A DNA stretch of 64,000 bases. It comes from an uncultured Acidobacteriota bacterium (lineage in GTDB: Bacteria; Acidobacteriota; UBA6911). The stretch is taken from the NCBI GenBank assembly GCA_963827655.1, contig CAWHCF010000032.1:32001-96000 (forward strand). The letters are read 5' to 3'. The position numbers and the translations under genes are program-made. Within the stretch, counting starts at the first letter, position 1; each line of letters opens with the position of its first letter. A model generated the notes under the pieces. It saw only the letters and a program-made list of their open reading frames with translations. It was not told the DNA's origin and made no database searches. This document shows, piece by piece, positions 1 to 42,888 of the stretch.

Positions 1-1005
1 CGAATAGTAGTCGCGCGTCGGAATCGGGTCGTACTTGTGATCATGGCACTGCGCGCATCCCACGGTCAGCCCCAGAAACGCCTTGGTCGTGACATCTACC
101 TGATCGTTGGCATTGCCCCCCAGAGCCTGGAATCCGAGCCCCGCCATCAGCTCCTTCCGCTGGTCCTCCGGCATCAGGTCCGCCGCGATTTGCGCCTTCA
201 CGAAGCGGTCGTACGGCAAGTCCTTGTTAAACGCCTCGACCACCCAATCCCGATACCGGTACGCATTCGGCATCGGCGTATCAACTCCCGCCGCCAGCAA
301 TCCGTCGGAGTATCGAGCCAGGTCCAGCCAGTGCCGCGCCCACCGTTCCCCGTAATGCGGCGATTCGAGCAGCCGGTCCACGACGTTCGTGTAAGCCTCG
401 GGCGAGCTGTCCTTCAAAAACGCATCCACCTCTTCCGGCGTGGGTGGGAGTCCGGTCAGGTCGAGCGTTACGCGTCGCAGCCAGGTCCGGCGATCGGCTG
501 CTTTCACGGGAGCCATTCCCTTCGACTCGAGCTTGGCGAGCACGAAGGCATCCACGGGCGTCCTTACCCAGGCTTTTTTCTTCACCTGAGGGACAATCGG
601 CTTGTTCACTCTCTGAAACGCCCAGAACCGGAGCTGGTCGGCCGGCGCGTTGTGAGCCGCTGTCTCGCCCCATGGCACGCCTCGCTTCACCCACTCGATC
701 AGCGCGTCTACGTCGGCTGCCGCAAGCGGTCCGGTAGGCGGCATTTTCAACCTGGCGTGCGTGCGGCGCACGGCCTGAATCAGGACGCTCTCTTCCGGCT
801 TTCCCGGTATCACCACCGGGCCCGACTTTCCACCTTTCAGCACGGCTTCCAGCGAATCCAGCCGCAATTCACCCATCGCCGTGTCGGTGTGGCAGGTGTA
901 GCAGTTGGCCGCCAGAATCGGCCGGACCTTGGACTCGAAGAACTCCGCGTCCGTCGCCCAGGCTGGCAGAACGACGATAAGTGCGAGACAGCAACGCCAG
1001 ATCAT
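1..1005 (-). CDS. Planctomycete-type cytochrome c / DUF1549 (PSCyt2)-DUF1553 family secreted protein, 5' part; runs off window start
   Basis: Manual translation from ATG at 1005 (absent from ORF track because no stop in window): MIWRCCLALIVVLPAWA signal, FFESKVRPILAANCYTCH (CxxCH), MPP, WAF, YGERWARHWLDLARYSD, GLTVGCAQCHDHKYDPI. Confidence 0.9.
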   Translation of the reverse strand, partial: MIWRCCLALIVVLPAWATDAEFFESKVRPILAANCYTCHTDTAMGELRLDSLEAVLKGGKSGPVVIPGKPEESVLIQAVRRTHARLKMPPTGPLAAADVDALIEWVKRGVPWGETAAHNAPADQLRFWAFQRVNKPIVPQVKKKAWVRTPVDAFVLAKLESKGMAPVKAADRRTWLRRVTLDLTGLPPTPEEVDAFLKDSSPEAYTNVVDRLLESPHYGERWARHWLDLARYSDGLLAAGVDTPMPNAYRYRDWVVEAFNKDLPYDRFVKAQIAADLMPEDQRKELMAGLGFQALGGNANDQVDVTTKAFLGLTVGCAQCHDHKYDPIPTRDYYS

Positions 1006-20284: not shown

Positions 20285-23119
20285 CTATGGACTCGAAGCT
20301 TTAACATTCACCCAGATGGGTGACGACCAGGCCAGCTGGCCATCCGCTTGCTGGACCCGGATGTAGTACCAGTTGCTACCCGCTGGGACTTTGGAATCCT
20401 CGTAGCTGATGTCCACGTTCTGCTTGCCTGGTTCGAAGGTGGTCAGATTTTCGTCGTTTCGACGTACGTCAATGCGTGCCACGTTACCGGTGCCGCGAAC
20501 CCGGATCGTCAGCCGCGGCTTTTCGCGGCTCTCGAACTCGTCGCCCATGAAATGCTCGCCGATGCGGAAATCGAGAACGATATTGTCGGTGGCGCCGTAG
20601 GTATGGCGCTTGCGAATGCCTTCCAGGACACCTTCCCGGCTGTTCTCCTTTACGTAAACCATGGCGTAAGAGATATGGGTCGACCCGTGATCGCTGGAAG
20701 TGATGGTCCCGAGACGATACCCCTTCTTCCAGGCGTTATTGACGAACCCGGCAGCCTCGTACCCGGCGCGGGTGTTGAGTTGCGCGTCTCTTTCAGCATC
20801 CGCAGCGCGGGGCGCGCCCACATACTCGTAGCTCGACCGGGCTCCTTGAAAGATTTCCACCACCGGCTCGAGCTGAGGATCATTGTCGCGCCAGTCGGTG
20901 CCCATGCGCGTTGCGCTGGTGTGAGAGATGGCGATCCCGCCGCTGCGTCTCAAGACTTCGTAGAGCAGCCTGGTGTCATCTTCGAGCAGCGCCCCGGTCC
21001 CAACTCCCGGACGTTCGCCCATCAAGCTCGCGCGGGTGAAGAAGGCTACGACCGGAATTCCGCGTCTGGCGTGAAAGATGTTTCGATGTCCGTTGGGATA
21101 GACCGCGCTGCGCTCGTAACCATAGAGCGAGACATACCGGTCCGGAAGGTGAAACATGTCCGTGGTTTTTTGCGTGTACCAGTAGGAGTAAAGATGGTCT
21201 CCCCCCGCGTTGTGATCCGTCACGGCGCCGAAATCCATTGCAGCGGCGTCGATCATGTATCGGTAAAAATCAAGGATAGAGCTATCCGTGGTTCCACCGT
21301 TGTCCCAGGAAAGCTCCGTATGCCGGTGCAGATCGCCTCGAACGACGCGTAACTCGTCGGCTCCGAGCCGGACGCGGGCTGCGCGCATGGCCTCGAGGTC
21401 CCCTTTTTCATCGGCATGCCCGCCGGCCAGCGCCGGCGCCGTTTCCGGGACCGGGTCGACCAGGCTCGGCTCTCGTGCCTGATTGAGCGGCTTGATAAAT
21501 CCCGCGTAGACTTGATTCACCACCGGTATATGAGAGTTTCCCCACCAGCGCCGGTTGTCTGTGGACCAGGCCAGCCAGATAGTTCCGGCTGCTCCTGCGG
21601 TGATGCTGGAGTGGCTGCTGACCCGGCCGAAACTGTCGGGGAGCTCCTGGGCGGGAGTCCAGCGATCTCCGTCATACTGCGTCACGTAACCCTGCCACAG
21701 CGATCGAGGCTGCGCGGCGCCTTCGATCCGGCGTTCCACGCGCCGCCGGAAGTGCGCCCAGATTCGCCCGTCCCGGTCCGAAGCCAGCTTCGGCCACTGC
21801 AAGAACTGTCGTTCGGCGGCCGGGAGCGCCTCTTCGATTCTAGCCGCAGGCTGCCGGACCTGATCTGCCACGTAACACCGCACCCGGACTTCTCGAGGGC
21901 CTCCCAGGACCGTTCCCGATTGGTTGCCGCGGATCGTGTATCCCTGGTCCTTTCCCCAGTGAGCCCCGCCTCGCTCCCACGCCACCCAGATTCTCCCGCC
22001 CTTGTCGAACGCGACGCTGGCATGAGCTTCAAAATAGGGGGACGCGGACACGGTGACTTCGTTCTTCCAGGTCCCTCTTTCGGCCTGGCGCAGGAATACG
22101 TCATAGTCGCCATTCCGATAGCTGTCCCACACGACCGCCACTCGTCCTTTCCCATCGGAGGCGACGGCAGGTTCCCAGTCATTGCCCCTGGATTCCGTTA
22201 CCGTGGAGGTTGCCTGCCAGCTTCCATTTTTCAGCGAACGAAGATAAATATTGAAGTCGCCGTCACGGTAGCCCTGCCAGGCCACGTGGATCTCGCCGGC
22301 GCTGTCGCCGGTCAGATGATGGTTGATGTCCGGGCCCGGCGCCTCGGTGAGCCGAACTCTTGGCGTCCAGGATTCTCCGTCGAGTGAGCGCGCGTACAGA
22401 TCCCAGTTGCCGCCGATCTGCTCCGACCATACCACCCAGACGCGGGACTTCCCGTCAACGGCGACTTGCGGTTTCCAGACATCTCCTTCTACTCCGGGCA
22501 CAGGAGTGAATGTCGCCCACCGGCCGTTCTGATAGCGGCGGATTCGAATCTCATCCATCTTGCCGCTGAAAGACGGCCAGACCGCCCAGGCGGTACCGTC
22601 CGCAGCTTCCGCGATCGACGGGAAATCTTCTTCGCGGGCATCACTGGTCAGTTTCGTGGAATCGGGAAGTCTTGTGATCTCGACGGCGCCGTCGAGTCTC
22701 TCGAGCCTGGAAGACGAGCGCAGCTCCGCTAGAGTAAAATCGAAGTTTCCGCGCAGAGTGGTGACTCGGAATCGCGATTGATCAGAGCCCAAACCGTAAA
22801 CCGTAATGCCGTTAGGAAGCCTGTCAGCGGACGCGGCTGGCGCGCTGGTGATCTTCCAACCGCCAACCCCTGCTGAATCTTGTTCCAGAAGGCGCAAGCC
22901 GTTTAAGGTGTCGATCCGGCCGTTCTCGATGCCAAGCGAGCCGTCCCAACTCGTCGGAGCCTGGTCTTTGTGTCCGAACGTGATGCGAAACGTGAAAGGA
23001 GCCGACGAACCCGCGCCGGCTTCCTGAGCTTTGATCAGTCCAGGACGAAACTCCCGCCAGAAGGAGATTCCCGCCAGGAAGGTAAGCAGAGGAAGAATCC
23101 AGAGAGACGATTTACGCAT
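20285..23119 (-). CDS. Secreted beta-propeller + PHP-like (DUF3604/CehA-like) metallohydrolase
   Basis: Repeated P.VA.D..G.VWVVW blades; GDLHRHTELS, TDH, GYE, GH, SH, SSDH, YGATDNI. Confidence 0.8.
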   Translation of the reverse strand: MRKSSLWILPLLTFLAGISFWREFRPGLIKAQEAGAGSSAPFTFRITFGHKDQAPTSWDGSLGIENGRIDTLNGLRLLEQDSAGVGGWKITSAPAASADRLPNGITVYGLGSDQSRFRVTTLRGNFDFTLAELRSSSRLERLDGAVEITRLPDSTKLTSDAREEDFPSIAEAADGTAWAVWPSFSGKMDEIRIRRYQNGRWATFTPVPGVEGDVWKPQVAVDGKSRVWVVWSEQIGGNWDLYARSLDGESWTPRVRLTEAPGPDINHHLTGDSAGEIHVAWQGYRDGDFNIYLRSLKNGSWQATSTVTESRGNDWEPAVASDGKGRVAVVWDSYRNGDYDVFLRQAERGTWKNEVTVSASPYFEAHASVAFDKGGRIWVAWERGGAHWGKDQGYTIRGNQSGTVLGGPREVRVRCYVADQVRQPAARIEEALPAAERQFLQWPKLASDRDGRIWAHFRRRVERRIEGAAQPRSLWQGYVTQYDGDRWTPAQELPDSFGRVSSHSSITAGAAGTIWLAWSTDNRRWWGNSHIPVVNQVYAGFIKPLNQAREPSLVDPVPETAPALAGGHADEKGDLEAMRAARVRLGADELRVVRGDLHRHTELSWDNGGTTDSSILDFYRYMIDAAAMDFGAVTDHNAGGDHLYSYWYTQKTTDMFHLPDRYVSLYGYERSAVYPNGHRNIFHARRGIPVVAFFTRASLMGERPGVGTGALLEDDTRLLYEVLRRSGGIAISHTSATRMGTDWRDNDPQLEPVVEIFQGARSSYEYVGAPRAADAERDAQLNTRAGYEAAGFVNNAWKKGYRLGTITSSDHGSTHISYAMVYVKENSREGVLEGIRKRHTYGATDNIVLDFRIGEHFMGDEFESREKPRLTIRVRGTGNVARIDVRRNDENLTTFEPGKQNVDISYEDSKVPAGSNWYYIRVQQADGQLAWSSPIWVNVKASSP

Positions 23120-23284
23120 GCCATTCGCTCCGCAGGCCGGGACAAAAGCCAGGGCTGAGTTTGAGGCGCATGTTAGTCGCAGGTTCTCCTCAGGACAAGT
23201 CTTGATTTCATGGCCACCGTCTCGGGGCTTGCCAGGGCGCCGACGAAAGAGACACCAAGAACCCGGACGATTTTGCTTTTGGAC

Positions 23285-23302
23285 AAATTGCATTGTACAA
23301 TT
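23285..23302. promoter_or_regulatory. Putative TA autorepression operator
   Basis: TTGTACAA perfect palindrome within aaattgcattgtacaatt, a few bp upstream of the antitoxin ATG. Confidence 0.5.
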
Positions 23303-24281: not shown

Positions 24282-25544
24282 ATGAAGACCATCCTGGTGT
24301 TGTTTCCGAATGATTGGGACCGGGCTGAATTCGGCCGGAGTAAGTACGAGGGAAAGTACAGGTTCGTCTTTTATGGAGACGACCTTTTCAAGTTACCCGG
24401 CGTCCTGAAACTCCTCAGTCTGAATATCCACGCGGTCATCGATGAGATTGTCTTGAAGTGCAGGAACGAAAGAATCGACGGCGTTCTTTCGACGGACGAG
24501 TATATCGGCGTGATTCTGGCGGCAGTGGTGGCGAAGCGACTGGGACTTCCGGGCCCCGAGCCGAAGAGAATTCTTGTCGCTCAGCATAAGTTCTACGCCC
24601 GGAAGATTCAGAGGCGCGTGGTTCCTTCGGCGACGCCCCGTTTCACGCTGATACCCCATCATACGAAGATCAACCTGCCTCTTTCTTTTCCCATTTTTGT
24701 GAAGCCGGTCAAGGGAACCTACTCTATCCTGGCGCGGCGTGTGGAGGACTTCGACGATCTGCGAAGTTATCTCCGGATCGGGCTGCTCGAGAGATTTCTG
24801 TACAGGAAGGTGACTCGCCCCTTTAATGACCTCTTGCGCTCATACACTTCATGCCAGACCGACGCGAATCATTTCCTGGGCGAAGAGGTCATCGCCGGCA
24901 TGCAGGTTACTGTCGACGGCTATGCCTATCGGGGAAAGATTGAGATCCTGGGGATCGTAGATTCCGTCATGTACCCCAGGACCGGCGCTTTCGAGAGATT
25001 CGAATATCCTTCCAGGCTGGGCTCCGGGGTTCAAGAACGGCTTGCCGCCCTGGCTCGATCCTTCATCAGAGGAATGAAATTCGAATACGGGTTGTTCAAC
25101 ATAGAGATGTTCTATAACCCGGAAACGGGCGACGCCAAGATCATCGAAATCAATCCGCGCATTTCCTACCAGTTCGCAGACTTGTATGAAAAAGTCGACG
25201 GGTTCAACATGTACGACCTTTTGATCTCGCTGGCCCTGGGCGAAAGTCCCTCGTTCAGAAGAGGCAAGGGGGACTATCGAAATTCAGCAAGTTTTGTCTT
25301 GAGGACATTCCGGGGCAGGAGGCTCCAGGCCAGTCCCGATCGAGAACACGTTCAGCGGCTGCGCCGGCAGTTTGAGGATGCCAGATTGATGCTTTACGGG
25401 CAAAGGGGGTGCAGCTTCGCCCGTGAGATGCGCATGGTGGGTAGCTTCAGGTACGCTGTCATAAACATGGGCGCCGCGAGCCCTCAGGATCTTTTTCGTC
25501 GATTCAAATCCGCCCGCGACCAGCTTCCGTTCCACTTTGTCTGA
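24282..25544 (+). CDS. ATP-grasp domain protein
   Basis: FPIFVKPVKG, EEVIAG.QVTVDG, FNIEMF, IIEINPR. Confidence 0.88.
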   Translation: MKTILVLFPNDWDRAEFGRSKYEGKYRFVFYGDDLFKLPGVLKLLSLNIHAVIDEIVLKCRNERIDGVLSTDEYIGVILAAVVAKRLGLPGPEPKRILVAQHKFYARKIQRRVVPSATPRFTLIPHHTKINLPLSFPIFVKPVKGTYSILARRVEDFDDLRSYLRIGLLERFLYRKVTRPFNDLLRSYTSCQTDANHFLGEEVIAGMQVTVDGYAYRGKIEILGIVDSVMYPRTGAFERFEYPSRLGSGVQERLAALARSFIRGMKFEYGLFNIEMFYNPETGDAKIIEINPRISYQFADLYEKVDGFNMYDLLISLALGESPSFRRGKGDYRNSASFVLRTFRGRRLQASPDREHVQRLRRQFEDARLMLYGQRGCSFAREMRMVGSFRYAVINMGAASPQDLFRRFKSARDQLPFHFV

Positions 25545-25613: not shown

Positions 25614-26109
25614 GTGAGAGAGCTTGAAAGAATCGGAGATCAACTCAGACGATCGTTCGACGGAGACGCGTTCTATGGGCCTTCGCTCTGGGAGCTGGTC
25701 AGAGATATCACGGCTGAGAAAGCTGCCGCCAGTCCGCTGGCCGGCACGCACAGCATTTGGGAAATCATTCTTCACGTCGCGGCGTGGGAAGGCGCCGTGC
25801 GATCGAGAATCGAGGGGGGACGGGTCGAACTTCCCGCAGAGGGAGATTGGCCTGCGATCGCCGACTCCAGTAGCGCGGAATGGAGCAAGAGCCTGGCTGC
25901 CCTTGAGCTCGGTCACAAGAGACTGCTTCAAGCTGTCGCAAGAACTCACTGATGACCGGCTGGACGAGCTTCTCGGAACTGAGCGGGATCGGCCTACCGG
26001 CGCGGGCGTATCCGTCTATGTCACGCTGCATGGCATCGCGCAGCATAATGTCTACCATAGCGGCCAGATTGCGCTCCTTCGCAGTCGCGCGGAGCTCGCG
26101 CATGAGTAG
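25614..26109 (+). CDS. DinB family protein; frameshift near 25945
   Basis: HSIWEIILHVAAWE in the first frame; LHGIAQHNVYHSGQIALLR in the second. Confidence 0.85.
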
Positions 26110-27214
26110 CTTTCGTCCTGTGAGCGGCCCGCCTCCGAAGATCTTCCTCAGCTATCGGCGAGACGATGCCGGCGCCCTCGCCCGAGTCTTCTACGAAGCG
26201 CTCGACCAGCGGTTCCCGGGGCGTGTCTTCCTCGACGTCGCCGAGGTCGAGCCCGGTGTCGACTTCGTCTCCGCAATCGACACCTCGATGCGCGAGTCGG
26301 GCGCGTGCGTCGCCTTGATCGGGCCGAAGTGGATGGCGGTTGACGCTACGGGCCGCGCGCGCCTGCAGGACGAACGCGACTACGTCCGGCGCGAGATCGC
26401 GGCCGCCCTCGAACGGAAGATCCTGATAATCCCGGTCGAGCTGCCGGGAGCGACGATGCCGCGCGCGAGCGATCTTCCTGCCGACATCGCGGGGCTGGCG
26501 AGGCTCAACGCGTTAGAGATATTCGAATCCAAATTCGCGGACGGCGTTCAGGGGCTGGTGGAGCTGATCGAGCGCCACTTCGGAGAAGACCGGGATCGAG
26601 TGCGGCTCTCCGGCATGCTCTCGAACCAGGGTTGGACCGTATACATCGACATCCAGGACCTCGACGTGCAAGAGATCGCCTACCGCGTCGACGGCAAGGG
26701 AACGTTCCGGAGCACGGGGTTCGAGACCACTCGCGATCGCGCCACCGGTCGAGCGCAGGCCCGCCGCCATTTCTCGCTCCCGGCGTCCGCTCGTCGTCAC
26801 GACGTGGAAATCCGATACACCGACCTGCGCGGTCGCGAGCACGGGCCGTTTGTGGTTGGGTTCGACGCGCAAGCGGAGCTGGTGCGCTCGACGCGCTCGA
26901 TTCTGGAGATGACGCCGCAGTGGATTTCGTTCGCCGAGGGCGGCGAGGAGGGCAAGGTGGTCGTCTACTTTTCACACCTGCTGTCCTACAAGGCCGCGCT
27001 GCAGGAGATCCGCTTCTCCGTCGACGATGATGCGCTCGACCGAACGCTGCGGTTCGTCCGCAGCACCGAGGACCCGACGCACGGGATCGACCAGGCCGAT
27101 GAGATGATGGTCGAGGTCCCGAGAGGGACGAGAAGTGTCTGGGTCCGCCTGACCTACGCCGACGGCACACGCAGCGAGGCCGTCGAGTTCGAGCTGCCGA
27201 CGAAGCCGAACTGA
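26102..27214 (+). CDS. TIR-domain protein with two C-terminal beta-sandwich-like repeats
   Basis: KIFLSYRRDD, VFLDV, PGVDF, LIGPKW, DYVRREIAAAL (catalytic Glu position), IIPV; ATG overlaps the DinB 3' end. Confidence 0.88.
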   Translation: MSSFRPVSGPPPKIFLSYRRDDAGALARVFYEALDQRFPGRVFLDVAEVEPGVDFVSAIDTSMRESGACVALIGPKWMAVDATGRARLQDERDYVRREIAAALERKILIIPVELPGATMPRASDLPADIAGLARLNALEIFESKFADGVQGLVELIERHFGEDRDRVRLSGMLSNQGWTVYIDIQDLDVQEIAYRVDGKGTFRSTGFETTRDRATGRAQARRHFSLPASARRHDVEIRYTDLRGREHGPFVVGFDAQAELVRSTRSILEMTPQWISFAEGGEEGKVVVYFSHLLSYKAALQEIRFSVDDDALDRTLRFVRSTEDPTHGIDQADEMMVEVPRGTRSVWVRLTYADGTRSEAVEFELPTKPN

Positions 27215-31131: not shown

Positions 31132-32203
31132 TCACCGCTGCCGGGATTCTTCCAGCAGCGCCGCCAGATGCTGCTGCCAGAGCTGGGGCCAGGAATGGGT
31201 GCCGTGACCGCGCGTCTGATCGCTGATGGGGATCAGGACGAACCGCCCGCGCGTTCACTCGTTTGATTTCCCGCTCGACAATACCCAATTCGGGCGGATT
31301 GACCTGATCGTCGGCGGAATTGATGGCCACGAGCGGGGCCTGAATCTTCTCCAGGTTCGGCGCCGGATCGTAGTCGCGCGATGCGTCAAAGTAGTAGAGC
31401 ATGTCGTTGGCATCGGTTCGCGCCAGCTGCGCGCGCACCTGGTCGTCAAACAACCGGTCCGCCGCCAGGCGCGTCGGCGCCTGCTTCTGCAGTTGCAGCG
31501 GGCTGCTGGTCATGAAGGTCAAGGCATAGACGGCCGCGGTGAGACCTCGCGGCTGCGTCTGGTATTCCCCGTTGTTCCATTCCGGATCGTCGCGGATGGA
31601 ATCGAGGATCATCCGCCGAATCATCCGGTTTCGGCCCGAGATCTGAATGGGCAGGCAGGCCAAGGGCATGAGGGCATCCATGAACTCAGGATACTTTTGA
31701 CCCCAGAGCCATGTGTGCATACCGCCCATCGAAGTGCCCATCACCAACCTCAGATGATTGACGCCGAGCCCTTCGGTCAAAAGCCGGTGCTGCGCCACGA
31801 CCATGTCGTTGTAGTTGTAGTGGGGAAACCGGGCGCGAAGGCCGTCGCTGGGCTTGCTCGACTGGCCGTGCCCAACGTTGTCGGGAAGGATGATGAAGTG
31901 CCTGGCCGCGTCCAGGAGCTGCCCGGGACCAAAGAGGACACCGCCAAACTGCGCGGAGAGAAAGCCGCGTCCGCTGCCCCCGGTGCCGTGGAGGATCAGT
32001 ACTGCATTCCGCACTACCCCTCCCGCATCCCGGCGCGGCGTCCCGAGCGTGCGGTAATGAAGCTTCAATTCGGGCAGTTCCTCACCGCTCTCAAAGCGAA
32101 AGCCGCGAATTGTGAAATCTCCTTCGACGGGAATTGGCTCCTGCGGCGCGGTGGCGAAGGCGCGCGCGCTCAGCAGAACTAACAGCGACACCAGTGTTTT
32201 CAT
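31132..32203 (-). CDS. Secreted alpha/beta hydrolase (homoserine acetyltransferase-like); frameshift near 31250
   Basis: FRFESGE.LPEL.LHYRTLG, HGTGG, GTSMGG nucleophile elbow, SADD; RGHGTHS is in the shifted frame. Confidence 0.85.
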
Positions 32204-33141: not shown

Positions 33142-33478
33142 CGCTTTGCGGCTGCTCGAGGCGGTTTGGACGGACTCGCGGGCCGTCGTTCTGAAAGCCG
33201 TCTCTATTGCTTTGCAATGATCAGGTCTTTGATCTTGTCGTGGGTGGCCTGAGAAATGACCTTCCTGCCGGTCGGGTCGCCTTGCGCCTGTAGGGGCGGT
33301 GCTTGATGATCGCATCGGCATACGCCGTAAAAACCTTTGCGCTCTAAGGCACCGCCGCGATAAAAAGGCGTATAACCATTTGCAGCGGGAGAATCGGAAT
33401 TCTGGCCGCTACCCGTCCGCGGCTGCCTCGGGTGGCGCCCAACCGCTTGCTGTTCAAAAACCCGGAGGAAGTCCTTTG

Positions 33479-36400
33479 ATGCTTAAACGGTCGCTTCACG
33501 CCGCGCTTCTGGCTGCGGCAGTCGTCACTGCGCCGGGCCTCGCCTCGGCCCAGACCAAGCTGCTGCACTTTCCCGACATCCACGGCGACAAGGCCGTCTT
33601 TACCTACGGCGGCGATTTGTGGATTGCTCCCGCCTCAGGCGGGACCGCGATCCGATTGACCGCTCATCCCGGGGTTGAGGTCTTCGGCAGGTTTTCGCCT
33701 GACGGAAAGTGGATCGCTTTCACCGGGCAATACGACGGCGACGAGCAGGTCTACGTCATACCCGCGACCGGGGGTGAGCCGAAGCAGCTCACGTTCTACC
33801 CGGCGCGCGGTCCGCTTACGCCGCGCTGGGGTTATGACAATCAGGTGTACGGATGGACCAACGACGGCAAGGCCGTCATCTTTCGCTCGCTGCGAGATTC
33901 GTGGGCGCTGCCGATCGCGCGGCTTTACACCGTGGCCGCAACCGGTGGCCCGGCCGAGCCCCTCCCGATGCCTGAAGCGGGCTCGGGCGCCTTTTCACCG
34001 GATGGCTCGAAGATCGTCTATTCGCCTCAATCGCGCGACTTCAGATCCGAGAAGCGCTACGCCGGCGGGCAGGCAAACCAGCTCTACATCTTCGATCTCA
34101 AGACGCTGGAAACGAAACGCATCAGCGACAGCCCGCATCCCAGCCGCGACCCCATGTGGATCGGCAACACGATCTACTTCAACTCGGATCGCGACGGCCG
34201 CTTCAATCTTTACGCCTACGATGTCGCGGGCGGCAAAACCACGCCGGTAACCCGGCACGACCCCTGGGATGTCCGGTGGCCGAGCGCCGGCCCGGACGGC
34301 CGTATTATTTACGAGCTCGACGGCGAACTTCACGTATTCGACACCAGGACCAGGAAGGACGCGGCGATCTCCATTGCCGTTCCCGACGACGGGCTGGCGC
34401 GCAGGGCGAGCCGCATTTCAGTCGTCGAATTTCATGGAGGATTTTTCACTGAGCCCGAAGGGCGAGCGGGTCCTCTTCTGTGCTCGCGGCGAGATCTTTA
34501 CTGCGCCGGTCGAAAAGGGCCCGACCCGTAACCTCACGCACTCATCGGGCGCGCACGACAAGTGGCCGCGCTGGTCGCCCGATGGTTCGCGAATCGCTTT
34601 CATTTCAGACAAGAGCGGGGAAGAAGAGGTCTGGGTGGTCGCCCAGGACGGATCGACCCCTCCCGAACAGTTGACCAGCGGCGGCAAGGCGATGCGCTAC
34701 GCTCCCGAGTGGGCGCCTGATGGCAAGCGCATAGCCTTCGGCGACAAGGACGGAAAGGTGCTTGTCCTGACCGTGGCCGAGCGCACGCCCATCGAGATTG
34801 TCGATTCTCCCCGGGGCCAGATTCGCGACTACGCGTGGTCGCCGCGCGGCAACCACCTGGCATTCAGCATGGCCGAACGATACCGGCTTCCGTTCGATCT
34901 ACATCTGGAGCGCGGGCGATGGCCAGCTTCGCAGAGTAACCGATGAACTGTTCAATGCCGGCAATCCGGCCTGGGACCCGCAGGGGAATTATCTCTACTA
35001 CTTGAGCGACCGCGAGTACGCGCCGCAGATTTCATCGATCGAGTTCAACTATGCGTTGAACCGATCGACCGGCATCTTTGCGCTTGCGCTGCGCCGGGAC
35101 GTCAAGAGTCCCTTTCCGCCGGAGAGCGATGAGGTGACCGTGACCAAGGACGACTCGGACCCGCCCAAGGAGCCGGAGAAGAAGGAACCCGCGCCCAAGC
35201 CGGGCGCGGACCTGGCGATCGATTTCGACGGCCTGGGCTCGCGAGTGGCCCGAGTTCCGCTCGAAGCAAGCAACTATGGCGGCCTTGCGGTGAAGAACGG
35301 GCATCTTCTGTACGGAGTCAGGCCTGCGTTCTACTACGGACGGCAAGGCGAACGGCCGCAGTCGCTGCGCATTTACGCGATCAAGGAGCGCAAGGAGACC
35401 ACGCTCGCCGAAGACGTCAGCGGATTCGCGCTTTCACACGACGGCTCGAAGGTGCTGGTCGCGGGTAGGGAGAGGAGCTTCAGCATATACGAAGCCACGC
35501 CCCAGGGGGAACGGACCAAGAAGCCGGTTTCGACCGCGGGACTCGCCATTGACCGCGTGCCCGCCGAAGAATGGAACCAGATTTTCAACGAGGTATGGCG
35601 GCGTTATCGCGACTTTTTCTACGTTGCCAACATGCACGGCTACGACTGGGAGGCCTTGCGCGAGCAGTATCGTCCGCAGCTCAAGCACGTCGCACACCGT
35701 TCGGACCTGAACTACGTCATTGCCGAGATGATCTCGGAGCTGACTGTGCAGCACGCCTACGTCGAAGGGGGTGACTTCCAGATTCCACCGCGTCCCCGCG
35801 TGGCCCTGCCCGGCGCCAGGTTCGAGCTCGATCGGAAAGCCGGCCGCTTCAAGATAAAGAAGATCTTCGAAGGACAGAACGAAGAAGAGATCTATCGCTC
35901 GCCGCTCACCGAGATCGGGGTGGATGTGGCAGCCGGCGACTATGTGCTCGCCATCAACGGCGAAGAACTGACCGCGAACGACGACCCTTATCGATTGCTC
36001 AGAAACCGCGCCGACGGTCCGGTTCAGTTGACCGTAAACAAACAGCCGGACCCGACCGGCGCGCGGACCGTGTCTTACCGGCCGATCACGGACGAAACCA
36101 GCCTGATCTATCTGGACTGGGTGAATCGCAACCGCCGGAAGGTTGCGGAGATGACCGGCGGACGCGTCGGCTACATCCATATCCCGGACATGGGAGCGGC
36201 AGGCCTGCGTGAGTTCATCAAGTGCGTATTACGGTCAGATCACCAGGGAAGGCCTGGTCGTCGATGTGCGGGCAAACGGCGGCGGGAATGTCTCGCAAAT
36301 GCTGATCGAGCGTCTGCGGCGGAAGGTGCTCGCGCTCAACTATTCCCGTAACGTGGACGAAGCGAATACCTATCCGGGCGGTGTCTTCGTCGGACCGATG

Positions 36401-36793
36401 GCGGCGATCCTCAACCAGAATTCCGCATCGGACGGCGATATCTTCCCGGCCATGTTTCGCGAAGCCGGTCTCGGGCCGCTGATCGGGAAGCGTTCGTGGG
36501 GCGGCGTCATCGGCATCGGCAATCGCGGCACGCTCATCGACGGCGGAAACATCTTCGTGCCCGAGTCAGCGTTCGCAAATGCCAGGGGAGAGTGGATCAT
36601 CGAAGGTTATGGCGTCGATCCCGACATCGAGGTCGAGAATGATCCGAAGTCCGAGATCGAAGGGCGGGACCCGCAGCTCGAACGGGCGGTCGCCGAGGTG
36701 ATGAAGAAGCTGAAGGAGAAACCGGTGAAGCTGCCGCCTCGCCCGGCAGCGCCGGTGAAAACCCCTGATACCAGGATGCGCAATTCTCACTGA
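33479..36793 (+). CDS. Tricorn protease-like S41 peptidase (PD40 propellers, PDZ); frameshifts near 34425, 34875 and 36225
   Basis: [10 protein letters not shown] repeats, [51 protein letters not shown] spread over four consecutive ORFs. Confidence 0.9.
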
Positions 36794-37225
36794 GGCTGAG
36801 CAGAAGCGCTGAGCTACCAACAGTCGAGGTCGGCGGGTCATGCCTTACAATTTCACAACACCTCGTGTCGACCTTAAGCGGTCGAGAATGTATCCAACGG
36901 GATAGCCCGACTATCTGATCGGACAGAACCCGGCCGGTCCCGAGCGCAAGAGGCCAGCGCGCGGCAATAAATCTCTATTCGAGGCCATCTCTTGTCTGGC
37001 CGGCAGTTCCGGCGAATGAGTACCCGGCTGTACGTTCGAGGCTTGCGTGCTGGCGCAGCGATTGCATTCTCCGGAGTAGCTCAACGCTTTTCAAAACTGT
37101 TGAGCCGGATTGAACCTGAGTAGAGGGTGGGGGGAGTGGCCAATTGATCGCCAGACAAATTCCACCAAACTAACACCGTCAACCCGCGAGCTCCCTCGGG
37201 CTAACGACGCCTGGGGAGGGTTTCG

Positions 37226-38299
37226 ATGCCCGGCATCTTCATCAGCTATCGGCGGGAAGACAGCGCAGGTCACGCGGGCCGCCTGTTCGACCGGCTGGGC
37301 GCGAAGTTCGGTCGTGAACGTGTCTTCATGGATGTCAGCGCGATCGAAGTAGGCCTGGACTTCGTCGATACCATCGAGCGCGCGATCGGATCGTGCGACG
37401 TCCTGCTCGCCGTCATCGGCCGAGAGTGGGCGACCTGCAAGGACCAGTCGGGACGCCGCCGCCTCGACGATCCCAACGACTTCATCCGTCTCGAGATCGC
37501 CACCGCGTTGAGTCGCAACGTCCGGGTTATTCCCGTCCTCGTCCAGGGCACACCGGTACCGGACGCCGACACGCTGCCGCCCGACTTGAAGCGCCTGACG
37601 CGGCGGCAAACCGCCGAACTGCGCGACACCCGATGGGGCGCCGACGTCGACAACCTCATCGTCGCCCTGGAGCCCACGCTTGCCGTACCGCCTCACGTGC
37701 CCGCTGGCGTCCCCTCGGAACGATCGACAGGTCAACCGGCGCCAGTGTTCTCGGAATCGCCCTTTCCGTTAGATTTACAGGTTCCAAGACGATCCACGCG
37801 TCGATGGCCGCTGGCGGGAGGCGCCATCGTGCTTCTGTCTACAGCAGCACTGCTACGGTTCGGTACCGGCACCCTTGAGATCGCTTCTTCGGGCCCAACG
37901 GCGACACAAATCCCGGTTTCGGCAGCTACGCCAACGGCGGACCCGGCGCCCGGCACGGTCGTTCGGCAGGCACCCGCCACGGGGGCCGAGCTCCGCGCTG
38001 ACTCGCGGCCCGTCGCGATCGTCTTGGCTGAAAGACCCACTCCACCGGCCGACACCAGGGTCGCCGTGCCGAGGGTCGTGGGTAAGCCGCTCGACCGGGC
38101 GTTCGAGGAAATCCGCAAGGCGGGTCTCGCCATTGGCTTGCAGCAAGCCAAGTCGAAGCGGGGAGCGGCTCGATTCGAAGTCCTCAGCCAGACGCCGTCC
38201 GGTGGCACTCGAGCTGCTCGAGGGACTCGGATCGACGTCGTCTACGCCCGGCCCGCGGCCAAAGGATTCGCCCGGTGGTTCGGTCGATTGGGAGGGTGA
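37226..38299 (+). CDS. TIR - transmembrane - PASTA domain protein
   Basis: IFISYRRED...DFIRLEIATAL TIR; hydrophobic WPLAGGAIVLLSTAALL; PASTA VAVPRVVGKPL..A...IRKAGL...VLSQTPSGGT..ARGT.IDVV. Confidence 0.85.
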   Translation: MPGIFISYRREDSAGHAGRLFDRLGAKFGRERVFMDVSAIEVGLDFVDTIERAIGSCDVLLAVIGREWATCKDQSGRRRLDDPNDFIRLEIATALSRNVRVIPVLVQGTPVPDADTLPPDLKRLTRRQTAELRDTRWGADVDNLIVALEPTLAVPPHVPAGVPSERSTGQPAPVFSESPFPLDLQVPRRSTRRWPLAGGAIVLLSTAALLRFGTGTLEIASSGPTATQIPVSAATPTADPAPGTVVRQAPATGAELRADSRPVAIVLAERPTPPADTRVAVPRVVGKPLDRAFEEIRKAGLAIGLQQAKSKRGAARFEVLSQTPSGGTRAARGTRIDVVYARPAAKGFARWFGRLGG

Positions 38300-38426: not shown

Positions 38427-40107
38427 TTACCAGCCCAAAGCGCACCCATCTTTGCGGGGGTCCGATCCTCCGAACAAGGCTCCGGTCCTGGGATCGATCA
38501 TGATCGCCTGATAGCCGCCGAACATCCCGGGCGAGGAAACCATGCGATGGCCTTTGGCTTCCAGCCCGCGCAGCACGTCTTGCCCGATAGACGATTCCAG
38601 TGCGAGCCCGCTTTCGAAATGCCGGAAGCGCGGCTGCTCACCCGCGCGCTGCACGTCCATTCCGTAATCGATGAGGTTGAGCAGAACCTGCACGTGGCCC
38701 TGGGTCTGCATATCGCCGCCCATAACGCCAAAAGTTACCCAGGGCTTGCCGTCGCGAAAGACCATCGCAGGCACCAGCGTGTGGAATGGGCGTTTGCCGC
38801 CTTCGAGCCGGTTGGGATGGTTGGGGTCGAAGGAAAAGCCGGCGCCTCGATTGTGCAGCACGATGCCCGTGTCCCCGGCTACCAGGCCGGATCCGAAAGC
38901 GCTGAAGATGCTTTGAATGAACGAAACCACGTTACGGTCCTTGTCCACGACCGTCAGGTAGACAGTGTCTTCGCCGCCCCGCGGACCCGATGTGGATTCG
39001 CCAACCGTTCGGCTTCGATCAATCCGTTTGCGCAATCCGGCTGCGTACTCTTTCGAGAGCAGCTGAGCAAGAGGCGCCTGGTAGAAAGCCGGGTCCGCGA
39101 TGTGTCGCGCGCGATCGGCGAAAGCCAGCTTTTTGGCTTCGACCAGAAGGTGCAAGTATTCGGTCGAGTTGTGGCCGAGTACACGCACGTCAAAGCCTTC
39201 CAGAAGGTTGAGCCAGAGCAGCGCGGTCAGCCCCTGGGTATTGGGCGGCATTTCATAAACCACGTTGCCGCGATAGGTAGTGCTGATGGGCTCGACCCAG
39301 TTGGAGCTGTGTTCGGCAAAATCGCCCATCGCGTGAAACCCGCCCTGACTCCTGGCAAACTTCACTATCTTTTCTGCAATCTCCCCCTGGTAGAAAACGT
39401 CGCGCCCGCCGGCGGCGATCTTCTTGAGCGTCTCAGCCAGATTCTTGTTGGTGAAGATCTCTCCGGGGCCGGGTGGCTGACCCTTGGGCTTGAAGGTCCT
39501 GGCAAAATCGGTGTCATCGGGGAGCATTTGCACCAGCTTCCAGTCATGACGCGATGACATCCGTGACCGGGAAACCACGTTCGGCATATTCAATTGCAGG
39601 CTGCAATACCTGTGCCAGCGTCATGGTGCCGAAGCGTTCCATCAGTTTCGCCCAGCCATCCACAGCGCCCGGCACCGTGACGGCGTGAATGCCACTCTCC
39701 GGCATCCGATCGAAGCTGCGCTTTTTCAACTCATCGATGCTTGCGGCTTTGGGCGCGCGTCCGCTGGCGTTCAGGGCTTTCAGCTCTTTTTTCTTCGCAT
39801 CCCATATCATCGCGAACAGATCGCCGCCGGGACTCACCATCATCGGCTCGACCACGCACAGCACCGCCGCCGCCGCCACTGCGGCATCAATCGCGTTGCC
39901 GCCCTGCTGCAAGATGCGCAGACCGGCGGCCGATGCCAGGGGCTGGCTGGTTGCGATCATCCCGTTCATCGCGCGCACGGCAGAACGGGTTCGGCCGCCG
40001 CCGGGACCGGGTTTATCACCGACAGGTTGTTGTGATTCGACAGGAAGTGCGGACGAGAGGATCATCGAGATTGTCAAAGAGGCAAGTGTGAGTTTTGCGT
40101 CTGGCAT
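38427..40107 (-). CDS. ggt: Gamma-glutamyltransferase; frameshift near 39553
   Basis: GGNAIDAAVAAAA, EPMM..PGGD, DTVYL nucleophile Thr, GKRPFHTLVP, GVMGGDMQ, GGSDPRKDG. Confidence 0.92.
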
Positions 40108-40182: not shown

Positions 40183-41078
40183 CTAGCGGGGCGAAAACTT
40201 CTGGGCGCGCCAGTTCTTGATCTCGGCCACGTAAATGCTGCCGCTGCGGCCCACCGTGAGATGGTGCGCGTAATCCAATTGACCGGGCAGCCTGCCGGGT
40301 TCCGCGACCGAGCCCAGGATCTGACCTTCAGGATTCAGCTTGAGAATCCGGTTGTTGTACCCATCGCACATGAAAATCGATTGGTCGTCGGTGATGTAGA
40401 GGCCCCAGGGCGAGCCGACGTGCTTCCACTGATTGAGGAATTTGCCCTCGGCGTCGAAGATCTGGATGCGGCGGTTTTCGCGATCCCCCACGTAAACACG
40501 CCCCTGCTTGTCGACGGCCACCGAGTGGACCAGGTTGAATTCACCCTCGCCGGTTCCTTTCTTGCCCCAGGCCTTGAGGAACTTCCCGTCTTTGGAAAAC
40601 TTCACCACCCGGGAGTTCCCGTAGCCGTCGGAGACGTAGAAATCTCCGTTAGCTGCAAACGCGATGTCGGTGGGCCGGTTGAAAGTATCCGGGGTTTCGC
40701 CGGGGAGCTCTTCCGACCGAGCACCATGCGAACGCGGCCTGCGGAATCCATCTTGACCACGAAGTGGCCGCCGTCATCGATGGCCCAGAGGTTTCCTTCA
40801 GGGTCGAAGCGGACCCCGTGCGGCCGCACAAAAACACGCTCGCCGAAAGAGCGGATCATCTTGCCATCACGATCGAATTCGATGATGGCGTGCTCGCCCC
40901 GGCTGAACACGAACACGTGCTCGTTGCGGTCCGCAGCAATACCGGGAGTCTCCTGAAGGATCCAGCCGGCAGGCAGCTGGGGCCAGTTGGGATCGACCTT
41001 GAAGTTCAGCGTGGGGATGGACTGGGCCAGTGCGCAGGAGGCAAACATGGCAAACAGACACAACGTACGCGATCGCAT
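40183..41078 (-). CDS. Secreted NHL-repeat (PAL-like) beta-propeller; frameshift near 40700
   Basis: VDPNWPQLP, PHGVRFDPEGNLW, SDGYGNSR, GEFNLVHSVAVD, VGDRENRRIQIFD. Confidence 0.85.
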
Positions 41079-41187
41079 CAGATTCTCCTCAACGGGCGGT
41101 TTCGCAAGAATACCACTTTCGCCTGGAGACCCATGCAACCCCGACCGGCAATCGGACAGTATCCCGCAAACGTTAGAACGTGAGCGA

Positions 41188-42888
41188 TCACTTTGCCGCG
41201 GGCCCTTGCGCGCTGGATTGTTCCGGCGGAGCGCCGGGAGCCGCAATACCAAGCGCCCAGCAGATGCCGTTGAGCAGGAGCTTTCGAAACGCGGCGTTGC
41301 CGAAATCGTCGGGATGTCCAAACGAAGTATAGAAGACACGCGACTGGCCGCTGCGCGGTGAATTCGTCCATGCCACCGGCTCCGGTTCCTGGCCGGAGAT
41401 CGACCCGATGAGAAGCGGTGTCGTGGAACCTGCAAGAGGAGTGACCCGGTAAAGCGACCCGTTGCCCGCGAGCTGCCTCAAGTCCAACCCCCGCAGGATC
41501 GGGTGCTTCTCTGCTCCGGGGGCGGCAGCCGTCGTGACCTTGGGCCCGCCGCCGTGATGACCGATGTAGTGTCCGCCCAGCACTTCCGGATCGAAGGCCG
41601 GCCAGGTGGCCGCGCCGCTTGGGAGGGGTGCGCTCCCGTCTCGCAAGGCAAAGGCGTGACTCGCGGTGCGGATGCCGACGAGCGGTTTGCCCGCGGCCAG
41701 ATGCGCGCGGATTGCATCGAGCTGTTCCTTCGGCGGCGTGCGACGCCGGATGCTGATGAGCACGAGATCGGCGCGAGCCACCGCCTGGGCCAGACCGGGA
41801 AAGGTATTTTTGTCGGACGGATCGGCCTGCACGAAACGAACCTGGAAGCCGTGTGGCTCCAGCTGCTGCCGGGCAAACACGGGCAGCGTGACGTCGGTCT
41901 TGTACTCGTCCTCACCGATCACCATCAGGATCGAACGCCGGTCGTTCTTGAATTGAAACGGGTCGCCACCGAGAAAATCGACGCTGGTAATGGTCGGGCA
42001 GACAAACTTCTCGATGTGCTCGACGATCAGGTCAGTGCCGGCGAAGTGGGTCACGTACGGCCAGCGTTCGGGATTGTACATGGTATCGGTCATGTCGCGC
42101 ATGAGCACTACGTTCTTGCCGTTCTTGGCCATCTGCCGCAGGCCGAACGGGCGACCGAGCACGCACATGTTGGTGTGTACGCCCAGGAGGATCACGTTCT
42201 TGATACGCCGGTGTTCGAGCAGGTTCCAGATCTCGACGCCCGAGTCGCTGATTGCGTCCTGGTCGTGAATCTTCAAAAGATCAATCTGGGCCTTCCACGG
42301 TGATTTCGGATTGCGTCCCATGCCGGCCAGCCGCTGGTGCCACTGCTCGTGCTCGACCAAATCGTCATCCTCTCCGCCGTCCGACTGGTCGATCGGATAT
42401 TTCCCCTTTTCCTCCGATGGGATCTGCCGGCACCACTCGCCGATGTCCGCGGGCAGGTTCGCGGCGCGCGGGGCCTCCTGCGCCCTCTTGCGCCCCGGGT
42501 GGTCCTTGTACGGATCCATGCAACTCGACGGCGCGTGTACGATAAGCACACCCCGGCTGCGGGCGTTCTCCAGCACCTGGTTCATGCGCGGGCCCATTTC
42601 TTCGGCGCGGCGCACGGCATTCAAGCAGTGATGAGCGTCCCACATGTCACATACGATGATGGCCGTTTCACTTGGGTTCCACTGCTCGGCCTTCTCGCGG
42701 ATCGTGTAGGCGCCCTGGGGCGTCGCCTCGCGAAAGCGCTTGTGAATCGTGACCGGGGCTCCACTGCTCGATTGGGCACGAACGAAGTCATACACGATCG
42801 CCAATGTTAATACGGCAGAACACCCTGCGGCGCAAAGTATTCGCCTTACCGGAAGCCCTGACAGAAAACGAGGAGAGGTGAAAATCAT
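41188..42888 (-). CDS. Isochorismatase-like + ThuA-like fusion protein
   Basis: IIVCDMWD, GVHTNMCV; GKPLVGIRTASHAF, EPVAWT, RVFYTSFGH. Confidence 0.85.
   Translation of the reverse strand: MIFTSPRFLSGLPVRRILCAAGCSAVLTLAIVYDFVRAQSSSGAPVTIHKRFREATPQGAYTIREKAEQWNPSETAIIVCDMWDAHHCLNAVRRAEEMGPRMNQVLENARSRGVLIVHAPSSCMDPYKDHPGRKRAQEAPRAANLPADIGEWCRQIPSEEKGKYPIDQSDGGEDDDLVEHEQWHQRLAGMGRNPKSPWKAQIDLLKIHDQDAISDSGVEIWNLLEHRRIKNVILLGVHTNMCVLGRPFGLRQMAKNGKNVVLMRDMTDTMYNPERWPYVTHFAGTDLIVEHIEKFVCPTITSVDFLGGDPFQFKNDRRSILMVIGEDEYKTDVTLPVFARQQLEPHGFQVRFVQADPSDKNTFPGLAQAVARADLVLISIRRRTPPKEQLDAIRAHLAAGKPLVGIRTASHAFALRDGSAPLPSGAATWPAFDPEVLGGHYIGHHGGGPKVTTAAAPGAEKHPILRGLDLRQLAGNGSLYRVTPLAGSTTPLLIGSISGQEPEPVAWTNSPRSGQSRVFYTSFGHPDDFGNAAFRKLLLNGICWALGIAAPGAPPEQSSAQGPAAK

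Follow-up and report, generated by a model that had tools for sequence, protein, structure and literature searches.

An open reading frame (ORF) on a contig of an uncultured Acidobacteriota bacterium (GTDB lineage UBA6911; assembly GCA_963827655.1, contig CAWHCF010000032.1) raises the question of what a bacterium would do with a TIR domain and a PASTA domain joined in one protein through a membrane segment. We analyzed a window of 64,000 nt, positions 32,001 to 96,000 of the forward strand of the contig, and window coordinates are used throughout. The original prediction, made from the sequence alone, had placed in the ORF an N-terminal TIR domain with a glutamate at the catalytic position (IRLEI), a Pro-rich linker, one hydrophobic segment, and a C-terminal PASTA domain, and had proposed a PknB-like receptor with a TIR domain in place of the kinase. 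We found the ORF at exactly the coordinates given for it and recovered all four parts, with TIR_2 and PASTA both above the Pfam cut-offs in a hidden Markov model (HMM) scan. The protein is predicted to be a type II (N-in, C-out) single-pass inner-membrane protein with a periplasmic PASTA domain and a cytoplasmic SARM1-type TIR domain. The most likely reading, an envelope-cued TIR NADase receptor activated by clustering of the SARM1-type TIR, is in our judgment about an even call.

The assignment of the N-terminal domain comes from both sequence and fold. Pfam TIR_2 (PF13676) matched residues 4 to 143 (E value of 1.8e-12, 48.2 bits against a cut-off of 28), and phmmer against all PDB sequences gave 13 matches, the top ten being SARM1 TIR chains (E value of 1.5e-5). 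In this alignment, the query DDPNDFIRLEIATALS lies over SARM1 HDCKDWVHKEIVTALS, which puts Glu90 of “IRLEI” (codon 37493-37495) over the catalytic Glu of SARM1 “HKEIV”; we label the latter E642 by our own count along chain 7ld0_A, which we take to cover residues 28 to 724. An AlphaFold2 model built with 18 relatives was confident for residues 1 to 153 and 241 to 345 and poor for 158 to 237, with the predicted local distance difference test (pLDDT) mostly at 70 to 95 in the TIR. With Foldseek, SARM1 TIR structures ranked first (E value of 1.6e-9, TM-score of 0.82 to 0.84 on the target), followed by plant TIRs, SPARTA, Cat1, and AbTir. The Glu90 position was invariant in the 18 aligned relatives. 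The catalytic Glu was also retained in all 107 database proteins with TIR and PASTA domains (see below), and 103 of them had the full Glu motif, the other four deviating at the aromatic residue only; because of this retention, the TIR is probably itself an enzyme. By sequence, it carries the catalytic Glu of the NADase-type TIR domains, so that NAD+ cleavage is a putative activity; SARM1 is a proven NADase. A predicted complex of two TIR copies (residues 1 to 155) scored 0.20 against a mark of 0.42 and is uninformative either way. In NCBIfam and PADLOC, only partial, sub-threshold matches were obtained, some with TIR models of the ThsB type and others with the PASTA end of kinases.

At the other end of the protein, Pfam PASTA (PF03793) matched residues 279 to 340 (E value of 1.2e-11, 44.8 bits against a cut-off of 23.2). 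This domain was modeled with a pLDDT of 93 to 97, and Foldseek confirmed a PASTA fold, with the fourth PASTA of StkP (5nod) and a PASTA domain of Staphylococcus aureus Stk1 (3m9g, root mean square deviation of 1.4 Å over 63 columns) as matches. Pfam reported two PASTA stretches in total. When aligned with longer relatives, residues 241 to 270 correspond to the second half of their first PASTA; the N-terminal half is deleted, and the remnant was modeled as two strands at a pLDDT of ca. 80. The same deletion is present in the closest relative among the matches listed (P0002), which also shares 14 of the 16 residues of the C-terminal tail, absent in the other 16 aligned relatives.

The two domains are connected by a linker with 10 Pro in 44 residues, predicted to be disordered (pLDDT of <50 over residues 158 to 201), and by the only hydrophobic stretch past the TIR. 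All 107 family members have a hydrophobic segment at this position, C-terminal to the TIR and ahead of the first PASTA (Kyte-Doolittle maximum over 19 residues, KD19, of ≥1.5). Four Lys or Arg residues precede the segment and none occur in the 15 residues past its best window (196 to 214), and the same excess on the N-terminal side was found in 15 of the 18 aligned relatives, with three ties. Hydropathy, this positive-inside bias, and the family-wide position make the segment a probable membrane span with the N terminus inside.

To what extent is this protein an oddity? A word-indexed protein search returned at least 4,448 proteins at an E value of 1e-3 among 8,000 candidates scored, and the best 120 were listed. 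PF13676 and PF03793 occurred together in 107 of these 120, and our own HMMs recovered the same 107. All had the same order, i.e., TIR, hydrophobic segment, and then one (13 proteins), two (32), three (48), or four (14) PASTA domains. Among the matches listed, full-length identity to the window protein ranged from 40 to 80%, the closest being P0002 (358 amino acids [aa], 80% identical, on a different contig). The sources included Geobacter metallireducens, G. hydrogenophilus, Acidobacteriota, Thermoanaerobaculia, Methylomirabilota, Chloroflexota, and Desulfuromonadales, and in the databases they are labeled only “PASTA domain-containing protein” or “TIR domain/PASTA domain.” The window protein is, thus, a member (with the shortest architecture) of an unnamed TIR-membrane segment-PASTA family that is large, spans several phyla, and includes cultured Geobacter. 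The architecture is not rare; its two modules are well known, and they are arranged as in a receptor. An exhaustive search found 35,937 representatives at an E value of 1e-3 and 9,249 at 1e-30, most of which must be proteins with the same TIR subtype and other tails.

These other tails were inspected in a scan of one genome per species that yielded at least 578 loci; we retained 80 and ran their proteins against Pfam. The C-terminal domains were PASTA (10 proteins), FGE-sulfatase (7), PG_binding_1 (3), and TPR (3), together with Sel1, FHA, Kelch, DUF4440, Ig-like alone, and DUF4190 in one protein each, while 51 of the 80 had no known C-terminal domain. Wall binders among the outside domains were thus the 10 PASTA, the 3 PG_binding_1, and the single Sel1. 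A strong hydrophobic segment (KD19 of ≥1.9) followed the TIR in 63 of the 80 proteins. It is this diversity of C-terminal domains, together with the 63 hydrophobic segments, that leads us to describe the subtype, from its sequences, as a family with a constant TIR, a membrane helix, and a variable ectodomain. The ectodomain repertoire of the bacterial Ser/Thr kinases is similar, and the proposed analogy of a PknB-like receptor with a TIR instead of a kinase fits this pattern.

A quick tree of 81 TIR domains, in which the groupings are provisional, placed the 11 PASTA rows all within one half, in at least three groups. The PASTA labels required seven changes on the tree, three of them forced by the starred branches, and none of 500 shuffles matched this. 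The window TIR grouped with that of an Acidobacteriota protein (L001, 73% identity). In two groups, TIRs from different phyla were nearly identical, which means recent transfer or mis-binning. These were, among the TIR-PASTA proteins, L009 (Pseudomonadota) with L011 (Phycisphaerae), and L002 (Chloroflexota) with L004 and L005 (Sulfuricella, Gammaproteobacteria).

Next, we looked at the genes surrounding the relatives. Of the 16 TIR-PASTA loci used, 10 came from genomes and 6 from metagenomes (the metagenome scan had yielded 37 loci), and 15 of the 16 had flanks; 50 ORFs were scanned with Pfam, nearly all from among the 75 flanking ORFs. Within three ORFs of the TIR-PASTA gene, another TIR gene was found at 8 of the 15 loci, a caspase-like protease (CHAT, C14, or C11) at 6, a TPR-S protein at 5, and a STAND NTPase and a patatin at 2 each; 11 loci had a conflict-type gene of any kind. 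Several of these neighbors formed tight same-strand arrays with the TIR-PASTA gene. The loci are not independent, since synteny links L004 to L005 and L125 has genes in common with L151. At L125 (1988-10683, +), genes for a patatin, a TIR protein, a Peptidase_C11, the TIR-PASTA protein, and a TIR-NACHT-TPR protein follow each other on one strand with short gaps, in what looks like a multi-TIR conflict operon. Parts of this array are found at L151 (Peptidase_C11, TIR-PASTA, TIR-TPR) and L051 (TIR-PASTA, TIR-TPR). At L120, a 1,958-aa DUF7379-CHAT-TPR-S-TIR protein ends 19 nt before the TIR-PASTA gene, and at L004 and L005 TPR-S, (patatin-)TIR, and TIR-PASTA genes are followed by that of a 1,780-aa CHAT protein. 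Other arrangements were a caspase and a CHAT protein downstream (L009), a divergent TIR gene with three nSTAND1-WD40 genes and a SIR2-TIR gene (L001), and TPR-S neighbors (L002 and L042). At L121, a gene for a two-TIR protein (124-1674, +) lies directly upstream; its first TIR belongs to the same SARM1-like subtype but reads FISSRR and DMIRQDI, with Asp replacing the catalytic Glu, so that the protein is possibly a non-catalytic partner. The same subtype was found in 3 of the 10 neighboring TIR proteins tested. At 4 of the 15 loci (L011, L029, L038, and L123), no TIR, caspase-like, TPR-S, STAND, or patatin neighbor was present; the genes there included a GH25 lysozyme-like gene (L011), PLD and TPR genes (L038), and unknown genes (L123). 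Because 11 of the 15 loci adjoin TIR, caspase-like, patatin, TPR-S, or STAND genes, the neighborhoods point to a role in conflict or immunity, and the immune role suggested originally gains support from them.

The giant neighbors of 1,780 to 1,958 aa (L004:11035-16377, L005:10778-16138, and L120:106-5982) have a common composition of two DUF7379/alpha-beta-hydrolase regions, CHAT, and TPR-S, to which a C-terminal TIR is added at L120.

The host genome (8.18 Mb, 53 contigs, 90% complete) contains 31 TIR_2 places in 30 ORFs, a very large repertoire for one bacterium. The 21 of these ORFs that were scanned included four SIR2-TIR, Macro-TIR, TIR-NACHT-WD40, TIR-WD40, TIR-Lcl_C, and TIR-DUF4384 proteins (examples of the TIR ORFs are C50:180798-182357, C23:221678-223057, C35:96580-97965, C43:2297-4309, and C25:102620-103717). 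PASTA, on the other hand, was found at only two places, the window gene and a class B penicillin-binding protein adjoining MurE, and we saw no PASTA kinase in what is a 90%-complete genome. Among 40 related genomes, none had a full-length TIR-PASTA match at an E value of 1e-20, and one had a TIR-only match. We read this patchy distribution, together with the near-identical TIRs across phyla, as typical of mobile defense genes. No shared synteny was found around the tricorn gene upstream of the TIR-PASTA gene (comparing the tricorn C-terminal piece in 24 relatives and the gamma-glutamyltranspeptidase/TIR-PASTA side downstream in 5 loci), and, therefore, no insertion site can be defined. The closest relatives of this tricorn gene were mostly from Blastocatellia and other Acidobacteriota metagenome-assembled genomes, at 62 to 79% identity.

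How might such a protein work? The PASTA fold binds peptidoglycan precursors and fragments in PknB-type kinases and PBP2x-type enzymes. A change in the wall, for example a muropeptide or lipid-II-like ligand exposed or released through damage or through a breach at phage entry or lysis, would alter the clustering of the PASTA ectodomains, and this clustering would bring the cytoplasmic TIR domains together. The assembled TIRs would then form composite active sites and cleave NAD+, leading either to its depletion (growth arrest or abortive infection) or to an ADP-ribose (ADPR)-type signal.

Several points weigh against this reading of an envelope-cued NADase. PASTA domains are not all ligand binders, some serving for localization, and the window copy is reduced to one complete PASTA and a half. 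Its hydrophobic segment, although at the conserved position, is borderline, with a KD19 maximum of 1.57 (window 196 to 214) against the classical 1.6, the lowest value among the 18 aligned relatives (the others having 1.70 to 2.79), and the helix modeled at residues 201 to 210 had low AlphaFold confidence. No partner or effector was detected by Pfam or PADLOC within ca. 17 kb on either side, and the TIR and protease genes so frequent beside the relatives suggest that the protein may not act alone. No experiment on any member with this architecture was found in the literature searched. Signs of relaxed constraint are also present. A variant found in run X2 (95 to 99% likeness over 37442-38197) had five non-synonymous changes (D73N, R100W, L184S, R211Q, and K311R, the first two at family-invariant columns) against two synonymous ones, a pattern that looks unconstrained, with the reservation that the X2 contigs are single and of depth <5 and the differences may be errors. 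Three adjacent genes lie in overlapping ORFs, namely, tricorn (33299-36793, +) in four, gamma-glutamyltranspeptidase (38427-40107, −) in two, and an NHL-repeat gene (40183-41435, −) probably in two, the last split being guessed, with Pfam matches only in 40183-40608. In relatives, tricorn is a single frame of ca. 1,100 aa, and the split junctions are not at long homopolymers; the split neighbors represent either assembly frameshifts or regional decay. In the opposite direction, the comparison with P0002 (identities of 142/153 residues in the TIR, 27/40 in the linker, and 47/63 in the PASTA) showed that the TIR has changed much less than the remainder of the protein, which fits selection on this domain. 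The evidence on constraint is therefore mixed, and the window copy appears minimal, solitary, and possibly weakly constrained.

Could the TIR-PASTA protein be mainly a receptor for other TIR proteins? In this alternative, the most interesting one, the clustered protein would recruit, through TIR-TIR contacts, cytosolic TIR proteins (TIR-STAND-TPR, patatin-TIR, or CHAT-TIR) that do the killing, and in the host these partners would be encoded elsewhere, among the 29 other TIR ORFs. The second TIR gene at 8 of the 15 loci, often adjacent and on the same strand (as at L125), agrees with it, as do the neighboring TIRs of the same subtype, including the one at L121 with Asp for Glu, as expected of a scaffold, and the host repertoire of 30 TIR ORFs with its four SIR2-TIR and its Macro-TIR proteins. 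Nevertheless, the TIR gene nearest to the window copy lies at a distance of 10 kb and belongs to another subtype (38% identity), the Glu kept in 107 of 107 proteins speaks for a TIR that is an enzyme, and the supporting loci are not independent; we consider recruitment rather unlikely. The generalization that bacteria use receptor-to-adaptor TIR signaling, with type II TIR receptors bearing interchangeable sensors that nucleate co-encoded TIR-STAND, patatin-TIR, and CHAT/caspase-TIR proteins, would be just as tentative. A different possibility is a housekeeping signal of wall or growth state like that of PknB/PrkC, in which the protein would read muropeptides and so tie wall synthesis or dormancy to metabolism, with NAD+ cleavage as a brake. 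It would suit a PASTA whose nearest folds are in the wall-sensing kinases StkP and Stk1, a genome in which no PASTA kinase was found and the only other PASTA is in a penicillin-binding protein, and flanking genes that are ordinary metabolic or periplasmic ones. Yet a core regulator would hardly be missing from all 40 related genomes, and the relatives reside among caspase-like, patatin, STAND, and TIR genes, not among wall-synthesis genes, and show signs of transfer between phyla, all of which makes this explanation distinctly improbable.

The PASTA might also be only an anchor, holding the TIR at the wall or septum, with activation by a cytoplasmic cue or a partner. In the accessible part of their study, Kaur et al. 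2020 (PMC7159879) class PASTA, OmpA, PEGA, and Sel1, where a membrane segment precedes them, among the “peptidoglycan-associating” domains of conflict systems that act near the membrane, and the repeats vary freely from one to four in the family, the window copy even lacking half of one. The diverse outside domains of the subtype (FGE-sulfatase, TPR, Kelch, Ig, and many unknown) fit variable ligand sensors better, and we regard a mere anchor as very unlikely. Lastly, the family may be functional and the window copy on its way out. Its architecture (the shortest in the family, one PASTA being half deleted and the membrane segment the weakest), the X2 changes, two of them at invariant columns, and the adjacent genes in pieces could all be taken as decay. 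Against this, the frame is intact and has a good ribosome-binding site, the only X2 indel is an in-frame 3-nt gap (codon 208, 37848), and P0002, on a different contig, has the same reduced architecture with a TIR 93% identical and a linker 68% identical. There is also a 156-nt contig from a rhizosphere metatranscriptome library that falls on the PASTA region (38087-38242, 95 to 99% likeness, word share of 0.05), a weak indication given that DNA carry-over is possible. Decay is accordingly the explanation to which we give the least credence.

The features of the gene are collected in Table 1. A GGAGG lies 6 nt 5′ of the ATG, with an in-frame stop seven codons upstream, and the N terminus MPGIFISYRRED is as in the relatives. 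Since the upstream intergenic region is 430 nt long and the next gene is convergent, the TIR-PASTA gene is most likely a single-gene unit with its own transcription; a search for a sigma-70-like site on the + strand was negative. The convergent gamma-glutamyltranspeptidase gene ends 128 nt past the stop codon, which leaves no space for lost PASTA repeats. Two artifacts were considered and rejected, a chance frame or assembly chimera because full-length homologs occur on independent contigs, and a C-terminal truncation by frameshift in view of the same 128-nt distance and of P0002 being equally long.

Table 1. Features of the TIR-PASTA gene and its product in the 64,000-nt window
Feature	Residues	Window coordinates	Strand	Basis
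Whole gene: TIR, linker, membrane segment, PASTA remnant, PASTA, short tail	357 aa	37226..38299	+	ORF; homologs of the same architecture
Shine-Dalgarno-like GGGGAGGG ahead of the ATG		37208..37215	+	Sequence reading
Cytoplasmic TIR domain, SARM1-like (predicted)	4-143 (fold to ca. 153)	37235..37654	+	Pfam TIR_2, phmmer, Foldseek, pLDDT
Pro-rich disordered linker ending RRSTRR	150-193	37673..37804	+	Pro count, pLDDT; variable among relatives
Single hydrophobic, probable membrane-spanning segment WPLAGGAIVLLSTAALLRF, N-in	194-212	37805..37861	+	Hydropathy, family position
Remnant of first PASTA, C-terminal half only	241-270	37946..38035	+	Alignment with relatives, Pfam, model
Complete PASTA, periplasmic (predicted)	279-340	38060..38245	+	Pfam, pLDDT, Foldseek
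C-terminal tail of 16 residues RPAAKGFARWFGRLGG		38249..38296	+	Common to closest relative only

The neighbors of the window gene were scanned between 20.3 and 55.7 kb (20 ORFs with Pfam and 21 with PADLOC) and proved to be ordinary genes: a tricorn protease, gamma-glutamyltranspeptidase, an NHL protein, a ThuA/isochorismatase fusion, hydrolases, a MacB-type permease, TerC, and a TPR histidine kinase. Matches to defense families in the 21 ORFs were limited to a distant TIR gene and the TPR kinase. The gene had been described as standing alone between unrelated genes, with no effector nearby. The flanking genes are indeed unrelated, but another TIR gene (25952-27214, +) is found 10 kb upstream. 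The lack of an effector holds for the window copy and not for the family, in which partners (TIR proteins and caspase-like proteases) are usual. The second TIR gene lies directly past an ATP-grasp gene (24282-25544, +) and encodes a protein of 420 aa with TIR_2 at residues 64 to 191, without a hydrophobic segment and with a C-terminal half without a Pfam family; its TIR is 38% identical to that of the TIR-PASTA protein and belongs to another subtype. Two other ORFs deserve mention, one of 1,002 aa (20285-23293, −) with no Pfam match at an E value of 1e-5 and no PADLOC match, and one of 566 aa (41188-42888, −) with an isochorismatase-like region and ThuA preceded by an N-terminal hydrophobic stretch.

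If a TIR enzyme coupled to an outside peptidoglycan binder is real, bacteria would be able to trigger NAD+-based arrest or signaling from the envelope when the wall is breached. If, instead, the receptor-to-adaptor version is true, the family would be a prokaryotic counterpart, and possibly a forerunner, of the Toll-like receptor/adaptor logic, with the PASTA members reporting peptidoglycan breach. Either way, the subject bears on the origin of the SARM1-type TIR and of the receptor-plus-TIR logic of animal immunity. Given a large multi-phylum family that includes the tractable Geobacter, within a wider set of proteins with a TIR, a membrane helix, and an ectodomain, one assay could open the whole class. 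The window copy, reduced and solitary, is not the best member to test, and the L125 array is the best place for tests of the family.

Among known proteins, SARM1 is the best match to the window TIR in both sequence and fold, sharing the FISYRR start, the D-aromatic-x-x-x-E motif, and the catalytic Glu. The rest of the molecule differs: SARM1 is an ARM-SAM-SAM-TIR protein under allosteric control by nicotinamide mononucleotide (NMN) and NAD+, whereas the window TIR is the N terminus of a membrane protein with an outside domain, in which Pfam found only TIR_2 and PASTA, so that no octameric ring is expected. The layout is the one of the kinases PknB, StkP, PrkC, and Stk1 (NF033483), i.e., a cytoplasmic catalytic domain, a linker, one membrane helix, and outside PASTA domains, and StkP and Stk1 also have the PASTA domains nearest in fold. 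Unlike them, the window protein has no kinase family among its Pfam hits (NF033483 matched with 34 bits against a cut-off of 450, at the PASTA end only), and its output would be NAD+ cleavage instead of phosphorylation. The bacterial TIR defense proteins (ThsB, TIR-STING, SPARTA, and AbTir-type NADases) resemble it in the catalytic Glu and in that its relatives are found in conflict-type clusters, and partial matches were obtained to PADLOC ThsB1 (E value of 2.8e-7) and NCBIfam ThcB4 (E value of 1.5e-9, 37 bits against a cut-off of 220). Thoeris is an operon of a TIR gene with a signal-activated effector, whereas no ThsA-type effector adjoins the window gene. To our knowledge, the known bacterial TIR defense proteins sense infection inside the cell, while the predicted sensor of the window protein is outside the membrane.

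Closest in concept is the receptor-like TIR-ParA subtype, for which the accessible part of the report describes type II ParA proteins with a membrane segment and a PASTA or other peptidoglycan-binding ectodomain, paired with an active TIR gene and predicted to sense peptidoglycan breach (10.64898/2026.10.19.760177). There, the ParA NTPase is inside and the TIR is a separate upstream gene, whereas in the window protein the TIR is fused directly; no ParA was found by Pfam in the window protein, its neighbors, or the scanned neighbors of the relatives. In the iSTAND systems, PASTA is attached to the vWA component, not to a TIR, according to the accessible part of PMC7159879, in which the term “TPR-S” does not appear; the literature searched held nothing useful on TPR-S. 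By term search, neither “PASTA” nor “peptidoglycan” occurs in the accessible text of a systematic Thoeris survey (10.64898/2025.12.03.692087). The chance that the architecture had already been characterized was raised at the outset; in the literature searched, we found no experimental or explicit description of the direct fusion, although preprint supplements may list such architectures.

The comparison from which the original prediction had started, a Toll-like-receptor topology, has to be turned around. Toll-like receptors are type I proteins with a C-terminal TIR, and their TIRs are scaffolds without the catalytic Glu, while the window protein is predicted to be type II (N-in), with an N-terminal TIR, and its ectodomain fold is unrelated to theirs. 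Both follow one logic, in which a sensor outside is joined by a single membrane helix to a TIR inside.

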